DNA of 64,000 nucleotides from Abditibacterium sp. (GCA_965199495.1 CBDASK010000003.1:1504001-1568000), one strand, 5' to 3'; shown: positions 42,869-50,056, numbered from the stretch's first letter. The notes: a model not told the origin generated them from the sequence alone. Numbers and translations are program-made.

Positions 42869-44575
42869 TTACGCGTCCAAATCCACGCCCTCGATCTCTT
42901 CGGCGCCCGGCAAATCTTCGAGGCTCATCACGTTGTCCAGTCCGTCGCCCGTTTCCATTTCGTCTTCCGCTTCCAGGTTTTGTTTGGCGGTTTGCAACAA
43001 AGTCGAGTGTTCAGTCGTATGCTTTTCGGGATGAACTTTCATGCCCTGATGCAAAATTTGATCGATCAAATCCACGATTTGCGGGTCGAACTGCGTGCCC
43101 GCGCAACGCTTTAATTCGCCCACGGCGTCCTCGTGCGAGACCATATCGCGATAGGGACGCGGCGTCGTCATCGCATCGAACGCGTCAACGGCGCCCACAA
43201 TGCGCGCCACCAGAGGGATGCCCTCGCCCGCCAGACCATCGGGATAACCGCTACCGTCCCATTTTTCGTGGTGATGCAAAATCCCATCGGTCAGCCGGTT
43301 AAGCGTCGGCACGCGCAAAACCAAGTCGCGACCAATCGCCGGATGCTTCTGAATAATGGAAAATTCTTCGTCCATTAACTTGCCCGGCTTGAGCAAAATG
43401 CCGTCGGGCACGCCGATTTTGCCGATGTCGTGCAGCAAAGCCGAATAACGCACTTCGTCCAATTTCTCGCCCTTGAGTTCCAGGCGCCGCCCGACCTCGA
43501 CGGCCAAACGCATCACGCTTTCGCAATGTCCGCGCGTGTAGGCGTCTTTGGCTTCGATGGCGTCGGCCAAAACCGCGATGGTCGAAGCGTAAGCCTCATT
43601 GAGTTCGTGGTGCAAACGCACGTTTTCCAGCGCGATTCCGGCGTGCTGACCGATAGACAATAGCAATTTGGTGTCCTGCTCGTTGAAGTCTCCGCTGCGT
43701 TTGTTGGCCAAAAGTAGCACGCCACTGTTCTTGCCTTTGGCAGCCACCGGCAGAGCCGACAGGTTGACCAGACCGGAACCGTCGGGCAATTTGTCGCTAT
43801 CGTTTTCGACTAAGGGCGCGTTTTCGGTATGAACGCGGCGCGTGAACTCGAACAGCGCGTTGGCGATTTCGGGTTTGAGATCGTCCATGCCCAGCGAGGC
43901 GATCACATCGTCGCCGTCCGATTGGGTGAATAAACCGACTTCGGCGCCCGTCAGTTGGCGCGCCATTTCGATAATTAGCGACGGCAAATCGTCAATTTGC
44001 AGGTCGTGCAAATCCAAAACTTGCGCGAACAAATCGTCTTTTTCGCGCTCTTTTTCTTCGTTCTGGCGCACCAAATCGGCGACGTGAGAATGCAAACGCG
44101 CGTTTTCCTGCTCGGCCTCACGCTTTTCAGTTTGCAAATCGGCGTGAGCATTGTTCAATGCCTCGTGCGCTTCTTCGTGCGCTTCGAGTTGCCGCGCTAA
44201 CTGCGCGATTTGATGATTCAACCGCGCGTTCTCTTCGCCGCTCTGGCGATTATTTTCTTCGAGCGCGGCGTTTTGATGCGTCAAACTTTCGTTTTCGAGC
44301 GACGATTTGTCGAGTTGCACGCGCAACTGTTCGACCTCGGTCTGCAACTGCGCGATCTGCGCGCTCAAATTTTCTTGATGGCGCAGAGCGGCTATCTTTT
44401 CGGTATCGAGCGACAAAACGGCGGCGCGCGCGCATTCGAGTTGTTGATGCACGGCATCGAAAGCCGCCAGAGCCGAAGCACTGGCCGAAGGTTGGTGCAT
44501 TTGCGGATGATCTTGCAGCACGGCGCAATCATCAATTGAGTCGGATGTGGGCGGTAAATTGGCGGAGAGAAACAT
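42869..44575 (-). CDS. Coiled-coil + GAF + HD-GYP phosphodiesterase
   Basis: YTRGHC, LLHDIGK, HHEKWDGSGYP, VDAFDAM. Confidence 0.92.
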   Translation of the reverse strand: MFLSANLPPTSDSIDDCAVLQDHPQMHQPSASASALAAFDAVHQQLECARAAVLSLDTEKIAALRHQENLSAQIAQLQTEVEQLRVQLDKSSLENESLTHQNAALEENNRQSGEENARLNHQIAQLARQLEAHEEAHEALNNAHADLQTEKREAEQENARLHSHVADLVRQNEEKEREKDDLFAQVLDLHDLQIDDLPSLIIEMARQLTGAEVGLFTQSDGDDVIASLGMDDLKPEIANALFEFTRRVHTENAPLVENDSDKLPDGSGLVNLSALPVAAKGKNSGVLLLANKRSGDFNEQDTKLLLSIGQHAGIALENVRLHHELNEAYASTIAVLADAIEAKDAYTRGHCESVMRLAVEVGRRLELKGEKLDEVRYSALLHDIGKIGVPDGILLKPGKLMDEEFSIIQKHPAIGRDLVLRVPTLNRLTDGILHHHEKWDGSGYPDGLAGEGIPLVARIVGAVDAFDAMTTPRPYRDMVSHEDAVGELKRCAGTQFDPQIVDLIDQILHQGMKVHPEKHTTEHSTLLQTAKQNLEAEDEMETGDGLDNVMSLEDLPGAEEIEGVDLDA

Positions 44576-44733
44576 GAGACAACGTAAAACTTGGGGCGGG
44601 CGCTGGACGCCCTTTTAATTCGGATGTTCAGCGCATTTCACGCCGAAGTCGTTCGCAATTACGGTTAAAAATTCCTAAGACTTCGGTTAAAAAAGCGCAG
44701 ACCAACCAGTGAACGCGATTTTCAACGTATGAC

Positions 44734-46353
44734 TTAGAGCAATGATTCCGCCGTGGCTTGGGCTTGGTTCTGCTGCGCTTGATCCAATTCTTCCTGCTCG
44801 ATGACCTGAAGATAATGATTGGACTGTTCCTGCGAACGTTTGAGCGCATCAGGGCGTGGACGGGCCGATCTTTCGGCCAGGGCCGCGAAATGATCGTTAG
44901 TTTTCTGGCTTTCTTGCAGAATTTTTTCCAAAACATTCACGACTTTGGGGTCGAACTGGCTGCCCGCACAACGCTTCATTTCGTCCAACGCTTCCTGCGC
45001 CGAAACGGACTGACGGTAAAGGCGCGGCGTCGTCATCGCTTCGAAGGCATTGACGGCGCCGACGATGCGCGCGGCAATGGGAATTCTCTCGGCGGCCAGC
45101 CCCGAAGGATAGCCGCTGCCGTCCCATTTTTCGTGCTGATGCAAAATCGCGTCGGCCACGAAATGCAGATGCGGCATCCGCAAAACCAGATCGCAGCCGA
45201 TCACGGGATGGGTGCGCATAATCTTCTGTTCTTCGTCATTCAACCGCCCCGTGTTGAGCAATATTCCGTCGGGCACGCCGACTTTTCCAATGGCATGAAG
45301 CAATGCGGCCTGACGCACCTCTTCCAGTTGTTCGGCTTTGAGATCGAGTTTTTTGGCGACTTCAACGGCCAACAACATGATGCTCTGCGCGCGCCCGCCG
45401 GTATAAGCATTGCGAGTTTCGATGGCGTCAATCAAAGCGGAAACGGTATCGTTATAACGCTCTTCGTGTTGCCGGTAAAACTTCGCGTTTTCCAGCGCGA
45501 TAATCATCTGCGGCTCCAACTGTTGGAGCCGGTGGCTGTCCGCAAGGGTAAAGTCGCCGTCCGATTTGTTGGCCAGCAGCAAAACGCCGCCGTTTTCGTG
45601 ATGGGCCGCAAAGGGCAGCGCGATGAGATTGAAAAACTCGCAACTTTTCGGCGTGTTTTCGAAATCGTTTTCGATAACCGCTTCTTTGCCCTGACGAACT
45701 CTCTGCGTGAACTCGAACAGTTCGTAAGCCACGCGCGGCGGCAACCCGTCTAACCCACGCATTGCGGCGGCATCTATGGCGCTCGAATCGGTGAGAACGC
45801 CAACTTCAGCGCCCGTAATTTCGCAGGCGGCAGTTACAATTTGCCCGACCAAATCTTCAGTTTTGAGATCGAAGAGCGGCCCCATTTGTTGCAACAACTT
45901 GTCGCCTGACGAATCGTCGAGTTCGCTGGCAGCGCCCTCGATTTCGTTGATTTGCTGCTGCAAGCGAGCGTTATCGCCTTCCAATTTTTTGTTGTGGTTT
46001 TCCAAAAATTCGATGAGTTCGCTGGCGTCATTCAATTCCGATTGTAACGTTTCAATTTGTGCCGTCAAGCCTGCTTCGTGCGCGAAGTGCTGCGTTCTGG
46101 CGCTGTCACTTTCCATTTGGAGCGCCGCTACTATTTGGCGCGATTTTTCGAGTTGCTCGATGACATCGCGAAGCGCCGCAACGGCAGTTTCTCCCCCGTT
46201 GTCGGTGGAATCTGCCTGGACTTTTTCCAACGCGGAATCCGAGTTCGGGTCGCCGGATTTTTGGTGCGACTCCGCCGCGACGACCGATGAAGAACGCACG
46301 GGGACGGGAATGATAGAAGGGGCGGATGAGGGAAAAAGAGCGCGGGGTTTCAT
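44734..46353 (-). CDS. Coiled-coil + GAF + degenerate HD-GYP protein
   Basis: Paralogue of the neighbour with YTGGRA, LLHAIGK, HQHEKWDGSGYP, VNAFEAM. Confidence 0.88.
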   Translation of the reverse strand: MKPRALFPSSAPSIIPVPVRSSSVVAAESHQKSGDPNSDSALEKVQADSTDNGGETAVAALRDVIEQLEKSRQIVAALQMESDSARTQHFAHEAGLTAQIETLQSELNDASELIEFLENHNKKLEGDNARLQQQINEIEGAASELDDSSGDKLLQQMGPLFDLKTEDLVGQIVTAACEITGAEVGVLTDSSAIDAAAMRGLDGLPPRVAYELFEFTQRVRQGKEAVIENDFENTPKSCEFFNLIALPFAAHHENGGVLLLANKSDGDFTLADSHRLQQLEPQMIIALENAKFYRQHEERYNDTVSALIDAIETRNAYTGGRAQSIMLLAVEVAKKLDLKAEQLEEVRQAALLHAIGKVGVPDGILLNTGRLNDEEQKIMRTHPVIGCDLVLRMPHLHFVADAILHQHEKWDGSGYPSGLAAERIPIAARIVGAVNAFEAMTTPRLYRQSVSAQEALDEMKRCAGSQFDPKVVNVLEKILQESQKTNDHFAALAERSARPRPDALKRSQEQSNHYLQVIEQEELDQAQQNQAQATAESLL

Positions 46354-46705: not shown

Positions 46706-47311
46706 TTAACTGCCGAAGCGTTCGCTGACTTTATCCCAATTGACGGTGTTCCACCACGCTTCGAGATATTTTGGGCGCGCGTTCTGATAATTCAGATAAT
46801 ACGCGTGTTCCCACACGTCGTTGCCCAGAATCGGCGTCAGGCCCTGCGTGAGCGGGCTATCTTGATTGGGCGTCGAAATCACCTGCAAATTGCCCGACGC
46901 GTCTTTGACCAGCCACGCCCAGCCCGAACCGAACTGGCCCGCGCCCGCCGCGTTGAATTTGGTCTTGAGTTCGTCCAGCGAACCAAACGTCTGGTCAATG
47001 GCGTCTTTGAGCGCCCCGCTGGGCTGCGAAGCGCCGCCGGGCGTCATGGTTTCCCAAAACATGGTGTGATTGATATGTCCGCCACCGTTGTTGCGAATAG
47101 CGGTTTTAACCGAATCGGGCGCGCTGTCGAGATTGGTAATCAAATCTTCGATAGATTTATTGGCCAGTTCGGGCGCCTTTTCGAGGGCGGCGTTGAGATT
47201 ATTGACGTAAGCCGCGTGATGCTTGTCGTGATGAATTTTCATGGTTTCTTCATCAATATGCGGTTCGAGCGCGTCATACGCGTAGGGCAGAGCGGGAAGT
47301 TCAAAAGCCAT
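46706..47311 (-). CDS. sodA: Fe/Mn superoxide dismutase (Mn-type signature)
   Basis: [47 protein letters not shown]. Confidence 0.96.
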
Positions 47312-47446
47312 AGTATTTTCCTTGAATCGCGCGGCGCCACGATTTGCTGGTTTTTGGCGCGCCGCCGAAATTCGAGGTTTCTCTGGCGCAAAACTGGCGC
47401 CGCGTTTTTGGGTAGTGCTACGAATCAGAAGTTTTGCTCTTGCCCC

Positions 47447-47476
47447 TTGCGCTCCATAAGCAAATCTGATTATAAT
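47447..47476 (+). promoter_or_regulatory. Candidate sigma70 promoter for the tRNA cassette
   Basis: TTGCGC-18 nt-TATAAT, divergent from sod. Confidence 0.55.
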
Positions 47477-47507
47477 TATTTCCGCGCCAAATTGGCGCAC
47501 CAAAATC

Positions 47508-47603
47508 ATGTTTGTTTTCGGCTTGAACTTAAAACCCTTCGCTTTGCAGAATCTGCAAACGAATGGTTTCGTTCCACTTCCGACAGCGCGCATGAATTTC
47601 TAA
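47508..47603 (+). CDS. Putative leader peptide [31 protein letters not shown]
   Basis: 31-codon ORF between promoter and terminator, below the ORF-track cutoff. Confidence 0.45.
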
Positions 47604-47623
47604 GTTCTCAGAAATCATTGATT

Positions 47624-47668
47624 AAACGCCCGCCTCTGGAAGTCCCGGAGGCGGGCGTTTTTGTTTTT
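47624..47668 (+). terminator. Terminator/attenuator hairpin upstream of the tRNA cassette
   Basis: aaacgcccgcctctgg-aagtc-ccggaggcgggcgttt followed by ttgttttt. Confidence 0.8.
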
Positions 47669-47680
47669 CTGATGCGATTT

Positions 47681-47751
47681 TGCTTGATCGTCTAAAGGTA
47701 GGACTTCTGACTTTGGCCCAGAAAATCTTGGTTCGATTCCAGGTCGAGCAG
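47681..47751 (+). tRNA. tRNA-Gln(TTG)
   Basis: TGCTTGA/TCGAGCA acceptor, loop CTTTGGC, GTTCGATTC T-arm; A-C mismatch at 31-39; no CCA. Confidence 0.85.
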
Positions 47752-47767
47752 TGGAAATTTTTCCAAT

Positions 47768-47839
47768 AGTGAGGTGGCGAAGTGGTAACGCGACGGCCTG
47801 TTAAGCCGTTCATCGCAGGTTCGATCCCTGTCCTCACTG
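47768..47839 (+). tRNA. tRNA-Asn(GTT)
   Basis: AGTGAGG/CCTCACT acceptor, ACGGC-CTGTTAA-GCCGT anticodon arm, G73; no CCA. Confidence 0.88.
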
Positions 47840-47843
47840 TAAG

Positions 47844-47916
47844 GTGCGCGTGGCCCAATGGCAGAGGCGGTCGGTTTAAGCCCGACGTGTTGCGAGTTCG
47901 AGTCTCGCCGCGCACA
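47844..47916 (+). tRNA. tRNA-Leu(TAA), short variable loop
   Basis: GTGCGCG/CGCGCAC acceptor, GTCGG-TTTAAGC-CCGAC, 5-nt variable loop, A73. Confidence 0.85.
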
Positions 47917-47929
47917 GAGTTAGTTTTTC

Positions 47930-48003
47930 GCCCGCGTAGCCCAATTGGTAGAGGCGCTGGATTCAAACCCCAGAGGTTCGCAGTTCGAGTCTGCGCGTGG
48001 GCA
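47930..48003 (+). tRNA. tRNA-Leu(CAA), short variable loop
   Basis: GCCCGCG/CGTGGGC acceptor, CTGGA-TTCAAAC-CCCAG (A-C mismatch), 5-nt variable loop, A73. Confidence 0.82.
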
Positions 48004-48103
48004 AATTTCACTCACGAAATATGGCGTTAAAACAGCTATGATACCCTGCACACCAGCAACGTCATCGCCGTTCCAATCGTCTAAAATTGACAACACATCA
48101 CCG

Positions 48104-50056
48104 ATGCAACAATCACAATCCGAAGTTCTCGTGCCCGCGCTTGAAAGCGCCGACCTCGCGCAAGAACCTCATATTATTACCGATAATTTGGACGAACTTC
48201 TGGCGGTTTTGCCCGCCGAATTGTCCGATGCGATTCCCGAATCGCAGCGCCCCAACTTATTGGAAATCGTCTTAGATTTGGGTCGTCGGCCCGAAGCGCG
48301 TTTTCTGGGACGCTATCAATATCTGCGCGAAACCGTCGTGACGCGCGAAGAGTTGGACTCAATCGAAGCGAAAATCGGTGCTTTCGGCGACGACAACCGC
48401 GCCGGACTGCCAGCCACGTTGCATCGCATCTCGGCGCTTCGCAATCGGCGCGGCCAAATCGTCGGCCTGACGCTACGCGTTGGGCGCGCCGTGACCGGCA
48501 TCATTGACATTCTGCGCGACTTGATCGAAAGCGGCCAATCGCTGTTGTTGATGGGCCGTCCGGGCCTGGGCAAAACCACGATGCTGCGCGAAATGGCGCG
48601 CGTTCTGGCCGACGAATCCGGCAAACGCGTGGTGATTGTGGACACCTCGAACGAAATCGCGGGCGATGGCGATGTGCCGCATCCGGCGATTGGGCGCGCG
48701 CGGCGGATGCAGGTGCCGCACGTCGCGCACCAACACGACGTGATGATCGAGGCCGTCGAAAATCACATGCCCGAAGTCATCGTGATTGACGAAATCGGGC
48801 GCATGGAAGAAACGCTCGCCGCGCGCACCATCGCCGAACGCGGCGTGCAACTCATCGCGACCGTGCACGGCAACACGCTCGATAATTTGATCGCCAATCC
48901 TTCGATGAGCGATTTAATCGGCGGCGTGCAAACCGTGACGCTGGGCGACGAAGAAGCGCGCCGTCGTCGCACGCAAAAAACAGTCAGCGAGCGCAAATTA
49001 CCGCCGACTTTCGACATCGTTGTCGAGATGATCGAGCGCGACAAAATCGCGATTCGCCGCCCGGTGGCTGATGTCGTGGACGCGTTACTTCGCGGCCAGA
49101 GCGCCAGTCCCGAAACGCGTTGGCGCGACGAGAACGGCGAATTAAATGTCGTGGGAGCCGAAGTTATATCGGCGCCCGAACCGATGGGCGAACGCGAGTT
49201 TTCCAATCGTAATGGTCGCGGCGGCGGGCGCGATAATCGCGGGCGCGGCGGCAATAATCGCGATAATCGTAACGGCTCCAACAAAGCGCACGGCTATTCC
49301 AAAGGTCACGGCGCTCCGGTTCCGCCGGTATTTCTGGCGCCCAAAGGCGGCACGCTCGTTCCCGTTGGCCCGCGCGCGGAAAGCGCGCAAACCTTCGCGC
49401 CATCGTCGTTCGATGACGATGGAGATGACCTAAAACCCATATTAAACGGCGAAGACGCGCGCCAATTCGAGTACGAAATGTTGCGTGACGAAAACAACGG
49501 CCCGGCGGGTGAACTGGCCGAAGAAGAGTTCGAGAATTTGCTTTCGACGTGGCAATCGCAGCCGGTGAACATGAGCAAAATTCGGCGTATTTATCCGTTC
49601 GGCATTTCGCGCTCGCGCTTGTCGCGCGCGGCCAAACATTTGGGAATTGACATCGTGCCCGCGCGCACCTGGCAAGAATGCGACGCCGTTTTGATGCTGT
49701 CGGGCGACGAAGGTTTGCCCGCGACCAATTCGATGCTGCGCGAAGCGCGCGACCTGAAACTGCCGATTATCGGCGTCGGCGGCAACACTTACGCGCAAAT
49801 CGTGGCGCGATTGAATGATCTATATAATACCGGCGCGTCCGATAGCGAAGATTCGCCGCGCGAACTGGCGATCCGAGAAGCCAAAGAAGCCGCGCAACGC
49901 GTGCTGGAAAGCGCGCAGACCATCGAACTGCGCCCGCAAATGAAAGCGCTGCGGCGTCTGCAACACGAAATCGCCGAGCGTTATCATCTGAAAAGTTTCA
50001 GCGTAGGACGCGACCCGCGCCGCCGCGTCAAAGTCGCGCCGATGATGGAACGGTAG
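48104..50056 (+). CDS. Ycf45/SpoIIIAA-like AAA ATPase with C-terminal R3H domain
   Basis: LDLGRRPEAR, GRPGLGKTT, VDTSNEIAGDGD, IVIDEIG, RRLQH (R3H); ATG 48104 lies after the tRNAs. Confidence 0.9.
   Translation: MQQSQSEVLVPALESADLAQEPHIITDNLDELLAVLPAELSDAIPESQRPNLLEIVLDLGRRPEARFLGRYQYLRETVVTREELDSIEAKIGAFGDDNRAGLPATLHRISALRNRRGQIVGLTLRVGRAVTGIIDILRDLIESGQSLLLMGRPGLGKTTMLREMARVLADESGKRVVIVDTSNEIAGDGDVPHPAIGRARRMQVPHVAHQHDVMIEAVENHMPEVIVIDEIGRMEETLAARTIAERGVQLIATVHGNTLDNLIANPSMSDLIGGVQTVTLGDEEARRRRTQKTVSERKLPPTFDIVVEMIERDKIAIRRPVADVVDALLRGQSASPETRWRDENGELNVVGAEVISAPEPMGEREFSNRNGRGGGRDNRGRGGNNRDNRNGSNKAHGYSKGHGAPVPPVFLAPKGGTLVPVGPRAESAQTFAPSSFDDDGDDLKPILNGEDARQFEYEMLRDENNGPAGELAEEEFENLLSTWQSQPVNMSKIRRIYPFGISRSRLSRAAKHLGIDIVPARTWQECDAVLMLSGDEGLPATNSMLREARDLKLPIIGVGGNTYAQIVARLNDLYNTGASDSEDSPRELAIREAKEAAQRVLESAQTIELRPQMKALRRLQHEIAERYHLKSFSVGRDPRRRVKVAPMMER

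Follow-up and report, generated by a model that had tools for sequence, protein, structure and literature searches.

The stretch analysed here, a window of 64,000 nucleotides (nt) from Abditibacterium sp. (GCA_965199495.1, CBDASK010000003.1:1504001-1568000), carries a run of four tRNA genes, for Gln, Asn and twice Leu, preceded by a predicted promoter, a short open reading frame (ORF) and a predicted intrinsic terminator (Table 1). Coordinates are window positions unless stated otherwise; the genome of the window is designated G000, other G numbers denote related genomes, and L numbers denote loci. The ORF and the terminator very probably constitute a ribosome-sensing leader-peptide transcription attenuator that controls a cassette of spare tRNAs and probably responds to loss of or damage to tRNA. 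The first-pass annotation had suggested an attenuated 'reserve' tRNA cassette at this place from a TTGCGC-18-TATAAT promoter, a 31-codon ORF, a GC hairpin with a U-tract and the four tRNA genes, all of which are present as it described them. The terminator hairpin (47624-47660) has 16 pairs and a folding energy of -32.1 kcal/mol, its U-tract runs to 47668, and the same type of terminator stands ahead of a second cassette of G000 and, in all, ahead of 33 other cassettes. Although a consensus scan does not call the leader promoter, whose -35 hexamer matches the consensus at 3/6 positions, TTGCGC/TTGCAC-18-TATAAT, with the same or nearly the same -35, is retained in five related leaders (G004, G006, G007, L124 and L152), and TATAAT is present in 9/9 scored leaders of the lineage of the window. 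TTGCGC-17-TATAAT also lies ahead of two other G000 genes. A GC-rich stretch comparable to the hairpin at the predicted transcript 5' end precedes the leader ATG in relatives, as judged by eye.

Each of the four cassette anticodons has a second copy elsewhere among the 66 tRNA genes that ARAGORN finds in G000, which bears out the term 'reserve', and the cassette copies share only 57% (Gln), 59% (Asn), 55% (Leu(UAA)) and 62% (Leu(CAA)) identity with their housekeeping counterparts. Neither cassette tRNA-Leu gene has a long variable arm, a condition atypical for bacterial tRNA-Leu, and the housekeeping Leu copies are longer (83 nt for UAA and 84 nt for CAA). The short-armed genes need not be disabled, because the sole tRNA-Leu(TAG) of G000 (3473050-3473125 of C3, minus strand; L212) is short-armed too, and this stand-alone pattern recurs in 10/12 other genomes of the genus. 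A plasmid array of 36 tRNAs contains a Leu(CAA) with 80% identity over 75 nt to that of the cassette, and the cassette genes for Gln and Asn are 72% like a pair of phage tRNAs; these similarities, which come from pairwise comparison only, fit an origin of the cassette in mobile arrays. Its presence is patchy (8/13 genomes of the genus, some of them incomplete).

Among the tRNA groups of G000, a strong hairpin within 40 nt upstream is found only at two redundant cassettes, that of the window (-31.5) and a Ser(TGA)-Tyr(GTA) cassette (-28.1; C3:4309188-4309709, minus strand; L021). The latter has a TTGACA-17-TAAAGT promoter, a Ser-rich leader ORF and a near-identical terminator. Other odd tRNA-like genes of G000 are without such a leader (C3:4061305-4061537, 4284143-4284216, 4321007-4321080 and 4621966-4622040); they are a trio of Glu(CTC), Trp and Ala(TGC), one gene whose anticodon is TTA (ochre), a divergent Val(CAC) and Ile(TAT).

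Leader composition and tRNA cargo

Codons 6-19 of the leader read, as quoted in the first-pass annotation, TTG AAC TTA AAA CCC TTC GCT TTG CAG AAT CTG CAA ACG AAT, so that 8/14 are UUR-Leu, Asn or Gln codons, compared with a genome share of 12.6% (1915 long ORFs). When the best 14-codon window among 30 codons is allowed for, the chance of 8/14 is about 7e-4, and 8/50,000 stop-free ORFs obtained by base shuffling attain this value. The ORF taken as a whole shows a modest excess (8/30 for UUR-Leu/Asn/Gln, P=0.03; 11/30 for Leu/Asn/Gln, P=0.011). The earlier statement that the leader is enriched in the codons decoded by the cassette holds strongly at the level of amino acids but weakly at that of UUR codons: three of the four Leu codons are UUR, against 48% in the genome, which is not significant, and in eight related leaders 36/42 Leu codons are readable by the leader's own cassette, against 31.1 upon permutation (P=0.017).

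The region is matched in 18/41 genomes. Gln-Asn-Leu cassettes are present in G002, G004, G006, G007 (Gln uncalled), G010, G012, G011 (split) and at the metagenome locus L124; the cassette of L152 is Gln-Asn only. The ATG is invariant in an alignment of 10 leaders, with an ORF of 31-36 codons in 10/10, and the control tract is stronger in relatives, reaching 13 Leu/Asn/Gln residues in a row in G012 and G002. The leader start shows no Shine-Dalgarno motif, of which only 13% of 1774 sampled G000 starts have the core, and its context lies at the 54th percentile of real G000 starts. The peptide matches no Pfam family.

Scans with the terminator pattern returned 129 distinct sites, 34 of which precede tRNAs, all of them in Abditibacteriaceae genomes or in metagenome contigs; viral contigs gave 0 matches. 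An ATG ORF ends 19-37 nt ahead of the stem at all 34, a TTG-type promoter lies upstream in 29, and a possible internal promoter between ORF stop and first tRNA (9/12 match) occurs in only 2/34 cassettes. The cassettes hold 1-17 tRNAs in relatives, and the leaders follow them. For instance, Phe-Met cassettes have Met/Phe-rich leaders and lone Asn cassettes Asn-rich ones, the leader of an Arg-Cys-Asp-Ser cassette contains a run of 12 residues of those kinds, and that of an eight-amino-acid cassette in G013 has 47/59 matched residues; the leaders of large cassettes are near all-amino-acid. Cassettes were permuted across the 18 lineages of leaders against a background of all leaders pooled, and 0/100,000 permutations reached the observed match (30.5 versus 0.0+/-4.8). 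Equally good matches arose in 0/100,000 permutations without the lineage of the window, in 27/100,000 for seven small unrelated cassettes and in 0/100,000 with all 34 rows kept; the Ser-Tyr leader ranks 4 of 18. Five loci were dropped from the main permutation tests, the test of residue position and the fixed-window switch test described below, namely L127, L160 and L175 (single tRNA at a contig end), L126 (single tRNA, probably incomplete, though not flagged as truncated) and L138 (start mis-called). Overall, the comparisons proposed in the first-pass annotation came out in its favour both for conservation of the leader ORF and for covariation of leader composition with tRNA content across lineages.

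Antiterminator and proposed switch

No clear antiterminator had been seen by eye in the first pass, but the check for alternative structures proposed there also came out in its favour, and one was found: 47576-47582 is complementary to the top of the terminator 5' arm plus the loop (47637-47643), and the pairing carries compensatory changes. In the alignment, 86% of the cells are paired, with 9 double changes; 0/500 shuffles reach these values, and slid registers give 28-52%. Three sub-lineages have three different complementary sequences in one register, when the alignment is read without the loop gap, and L152 pairs in a shifted register. The end of the best anti-loop helix lies 12-45 nt ahead of that of the ORF in 24/33 leaders, compared with 25% of shuffles (only L138 was dropped here). 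Individual helices are weak, with z below -1.65 in 10/34 leaders.

The switch was modelled on nascent RNA ending at 47645. A ribosome sitting within codons 2-18 gives the antiterminator a modelled probability of 0.51-0.98 and one within codons 20-30 a probability of 0.00, compared with 0.17 when no ribosome is present. In the proposed switch, polymerase would start at about 47483 and a ribosome would translate the 31-codon leader behind it. With ample Gln-, Asn- and Leu-tRNA, the ribosome would pass codons 6-19 and cover the 5' strand of the antiterminator, letting the terminator form and keeping the cassette silent; the cassette would be off without translation as well, because the leader then folds on itself. 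Were those tRNAs scarce, the ribosome would stall in the tract, leaving the strand free to pair with the emerging terminator loop, and polymerase would read into the tRNA genes. The new tRNAs would replace the missing species, closing a negative feedback loop, and elsewhere in the family the same device would serve other sets of tRNAs, with each leader enriched for the amino acids of its own cassette.

Residues matching the cargo are crowded where such stalling would count. Up to the boundary, modelled for each leader from the minimum-energy fold of just the RNA lying 3' of the ribosome, 198/396 residues (14 codons per leader, 29 leaders) are matched versus 81.5 expected (2.43-fold), whereas after it the same 29 leaders have 91/350 versus 76.2 (1.19-fold). 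Neither this crowding nor the matching of cargo across unrelated leaders is predicted if the device were a generic translation-stress attenuator of the kind reported for whiB7 and vmlR, in which any slowdown within the first 19 codons opens the terminator and the codons are incidental or tuning. We consider that alternative improbable, although in the model a stall anywhere in codons 2-18 permits the antiterminator, rtcB shares the layout with mixed leaders (see below), the leaders of the large cassettes come close to containing all amino acids, and the tRNA array of Anabaena is described as induced by chloramphenicol (PMC8421152). The generic and specific modes are compatible, and antibiotics probably induce the cassette too.

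Several observations weigh against tRNA-specific attenuation at this locus. The antiterminator of the window is not significant on its own (6/100 and 6/60 shuffles are equally good), and equilibrium folding of the whole transcript never yields it, the finished terminator having a probability of 1.00; control must be kinetic, as modelled only, because the completed 3' arm always favours the terminator. A fixed-window switch test is passed by 14/29 real leaders versus 26% of shuffled ones. Leaders without a cargo match exist (L116, L203, L034 and the single-tRNA loci L126, L127, L160 and L175), the Ser run of the Ser-Tyr leader sits at or past the modelled boundary, and the permutation P values overstate significance because kin are not independent, the test on small cassettes being the one that uses unrelated leaders. 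The leader of the window is the lowest in Leu/Asn/Gln within its clade (11/30 versus 13-15/30), and in this clade amino-acid changes are about as frequent as synonymous ones (5:5 in comparison with G011, for example), as expected of selection that acts on composition and not on the peptide sequence, though this offers no independent proof of translation. Finally, the poorest leader of the clade, the stem mismatch in tRNA-Gln and the split cassette of G011 point to decay in places. In G011, an ORF of ~230 codons on the opposite strand is inserted between the terminator and tRNA-Asn, and tRNA-Gln is destroyed (L002:1885-2600); we took this ORF to be HNH-like by eye, but Pfam gives a weak helix-turn-helix match only and no HNH match.

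Such decay, together with the resemblance of the tRNAs to plasmid and phage arrays, would also be expected if the ORF were untranslated, or the terminator served only to damp transcription leakily or to end a small RNA, and the tRNAs were silent relics of a mobile array. This is very improbable in view of the invariant ATG, the retained ORF length and the compensatory changes between ORF and terminator loop; moreover, a composition that tracks the cargo cannot arise without translation.

A separate question is what the leader would report; a ribosome cannot distinguish missing tRNA from uncharged tRNA. In the lineage of the window the cassette tRNA-Asn begins with A1-U72, whereas the housekeeping copy has U1-A72, the latter being the reported determinant for bacterial GatCAB and the former going unmentioned in the relevant passages of that report (PMC1635274). 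A gatB gene is above cut-off in G000 and neither asnS nor glnS is, so that Gln-tRNA and Asn-tRNA are both predicted to be made via amidation, a shared route that may explain why the two tRNAs travel together. These features, and the fact that classical attenuators respond to charging, favour an attenuator of identical mechanism and different purpose, which would sense shortage of amino acids or nitrogen through uncharged tRNA, Gln-tRNA and Asn-tRNA hanging on glutamine-driven amidation; extra tRNAs that charge differently, or whose mischarging is tolerated, would then sustain translation. We regard this as unlikely, yet worth serious consideration. Extra tRNA would do nothing for the supply of an amino acid that is lacking, no biosynthetic pathway is common to cargo sets such as Arg-Cys-Asp-Ser or His-Arg-Leu-Trp-Phe, and the genes that follow cassettes are of RNA repair and not biosynthetic. 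For these reasons the trigger is most likely loss of or damage to tRNA, such as anticodon nucleases would cause, and not a shortage of an amino acid. Starvation and antibiotics would likewise stall the leader ribosome.

Relation to known systems

The arrangement resembles the leader-peptide attenuators of amino-acid operons in Escherichia coli (trpL, hisL, leuL and pheL, and the multivalent thrL, ilvL and pheM-pheST) in its short ORF with control codons, an antiterminator strand in the 3' part of the ORF, the terminator, the predicted off state without translation and the presumed sensing of several amino acids. It differs in that the cargo consists of tRNA genes, so that the output would replace the ligand of the sensor, and in that leaders differ between cassettes, being matched to 1-13 amino acids each. 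With Rfam, no leader family reaches its gathering score (Thr_leader, 21.6/55 bits; Trp_leader, 16.6/41) and only the tRNAs do. T-box riboswitches also antiterminate according to the state of tRNA, but they bind tRNA directly and do not need translation, unlike the ORF-based device proposed here. The upstream ORF (uORF) attenuators of whiB7/wblC, Bacillus subtilis vmlR (PMC9226507) and E. coli topAI-yjhQ (PMC12121999) share with it a uORF and a terminator that report ribosome stalling; reportedly, they control proteins and are unmatched to any tRNA set, and it is this type that the rtcB leaders of Abditibacteriaceae resemble.

With the L-arrays and the trn operon of Anabaena PCC 7120, the latter being described as an operon of supernumerary tRNA genes that stress induces and a repressor controls (PMC8421152, PMC10272220), the cassettes share supernumerary divergent tRNAs, neighbouring or co-regulated genes of RNA processing and repair (rtcB) and a proposed role as an inducible reserve (PMC8421152). 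L-arrays are long, with up to 43 genes as described (PMC8421152), whereas the cassette of the window has four and those of relatives 1-17; it would work like an L-array fragment but is not classed as an L-array. By contrast to Anabaena, for which promoter repeats and a repressor are described, the cassettes here lie dispersed over the chromosome and have a leader each. The repressor of that regulon, TrcR, is a ribbon-helix-helix protein acting at tandem direct repeats over the -10 element and start site (PMC10272220). Control by a TrcR-like promoter repressor or by a T-box, with the ORF as a by-product, is hardly credible for the cassette of the window: the one studied array is indeed under TrcR (PMC10272220; PMC8421152), but this protein is described as restricted to cyanobacteria plus two cyanophages (PMC10272220), and no Rfam T-box was found at gathering score in the window, nor at E<=10 in 47300-48100; no motif search aimed at operator repeats was made, and a repressor may act as an additional layer. 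The RtcR-controlled RNA repair operon is likewise a response to tRNA damage with rtcB and Ro60-type genes (PMC7790460, PMC10159003); there, a sigma-54 activator is described as sensing tRNA fragments, whereas rtcB and the tRNA cassettes of Abditibacteriaceae have uORF-terminator leaders.

In the main texts of PMC8421152 and PMC10272220, 'attenuat' and 'leader' have 0 matches (supplements were outside the search), and a literature search, outside which most subscription journals and supplements lay, found no leader-peptide attenuator of tRNA genes. What appears to be new is a known attenuation mechanism with tRNA genes as its predicted cargo, which has strong comparative support. The locus bears on the questions of why spare tRNA genes are retained by bacteria and how they are turned on; in Anabaena, the one case that has been worked out, control is by a repressor. 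Here, the logic of control may be legible from sequence, as each leader names its tRNAs. If so, the ribosome would meter individual tRNA pools and order replacements in a closed feedback loop, which would allow a direct test of spare tRNAs countering tRNA-cleaving toxins, predicts the outcome of one-codon experiments and could yield compact tRNA-specific biosensors. Tentatively, as an idea that invites slightly more doubt than assent, the Abditibacteriaceae might possess a modular backup-tRNA regulon in which leader codons spell the cargo and are rewritten upon gain or loss of tRNAs, so that destruction of a tRNA by a nuclease or toxin switches on only its resistant-looking replacement, with an unmatched leader serving rtcB. 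This would amount to an anti-ribotoxin response without a protein regulator, in which the sets of leaders and cassettes list the tRNAs attacked in nature.

Neighbouring genes and other leaders

The features of the locus and its flanking genes are collected in Table 1.

Table 1. Leader, cassette and flanking genes in the window
Feature	Position	Strand	Basis or remark
-35 hexamer TTGCGC, predicted leader promoter	47447..47452	+	sequence
-10 hexamer TATAAT, 18-nt spacer after -35	47471..47476	+	sequence
Short GC-rich hairpin at predicted transcript 5' end	47484..47498	+	fold; candidate role pause or 5' protection
Leader ORF, 31 codons plus TAA	47508..47603	+	sequence
Control tract, codons 6-19, Leu/Asn/Gln 9/14	47523..47564	+	ends at modelled switch boundary
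Antiterminator 5' strand core, codons 23-25	47576..47582	+	extendable to about 47592
Antiterminator 3' strand core (terminator 5' arm top plus loop)	47637..47643	+	pairing, covariation
Intrinsic terminator (predicted), 16 pairs, 5-nt loop, U-tract	47624..47668	+	
tRNA-Gln(UUG), spare copy	47680..47752	+	A31-C39 mismatch in anticodon stem, read from sequence
tRNA-Asn(GUU), spare copy	47767..47840	+	first pair A1-U72
tRNA-Leu(UAA), spare copy, short variable arm, 73 nt	47844..47916	+	
tRNA-Leu(CAA), spare copy, short variable arm, 74 nt	47930..48003	+	
AAA ATPase (Spore_III_AA-like) + R3H gene, downstream	48104..50056	+	Pfam; start codon chosen manually
Fe/Mn superoxide dismutase gene, divergent	46706..47311	-	Pfam; context, not part of the device

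The AAA+R3H gene also follows the cassette in G004, G006, G007, G011 and L124 and is absent there from G002, G010 and G012. No terminator is called between cassette and gene in six loci, and the gene is possibly co-induced with the cassette; a TATGAT near 48034, retained in G011, may act as a separate promoter for the gene. The divergent superoxide dismutase gene is present upstream in G011, but another gene occupies its place in G004, and a link between it and the cassette was discarded for that reason. Upstream of the superoxide dismutase gene, the window contains two adjoining coiled-coil/GAF/HD-GYP-like genes (42869-46353). The Ser-Tyr cassette is followed by a 76-aa ORF, a Ro60-vWA-like gene and a ThiF gene, and genes for Ro60/TROVE, Hen1, Pnkp, RlaP, SPFH, cREC and DUF6847 proteins lie after several cassettes (34 proteins scanned, 11 without a family). 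At two loci without detected tRNAs (L197 in G013 and L198 in G021), the same promoter-ORF-terminator leader directly precedes small ORFs and TROVE/Ro60(-like) operons.

G000 has 933 strong terminators, of which six are preceded by a promoter and a short ORF. Besides those of the two tRNA cassettes and of rtcB, they are the terminators of an HMGL-like synthase gene and of the gene for a ribosomal protein; the sixth case is doubtful. The rtcB gene (C3:2253900-2255603 in G000, L211; relatives, L216-L244) has a promoter, an ORF of 30-45 codons and a terminator in 17/27 loci of the family, some of the 27 having no upstream sequence. Its leaders are mixed, with a Leu/Asn/Gln share of 0.14-0.29 compared with 0.34-0.50 in those members of the lineage of the window in which Gln, Asn and Leu are all called, and by this composition they are a natural negative control for that lineage. 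With them, rtcB would come under uORF-terminator control across the whole family.

The HMGL-like synthase gene, presumably the citramalate synthase gene cimA, is preceded by an Ile-Ile-Thr leader plus terminator (C3:2537418-2537537 of G000; L214), predicted to be an ordinary Ile attenuator. In other phyla, the same terminator pattern stands behind Leu-, Ile- or Cys-rich ORFs and ahead of biosynthetic or synthetase genes, which we take to be leuA, ileS and sulfur genes from their N-termini; these leaders, too, are ordinary attenuators by prediction. In Latescibacterota/Gemmatimonadota records (L064, L069, L073, L077, L081 and others), the pattern follows a short ORF and precedes an ABC-transporter-ATPase-like gene, possibly representing another family of uORF attenuators.
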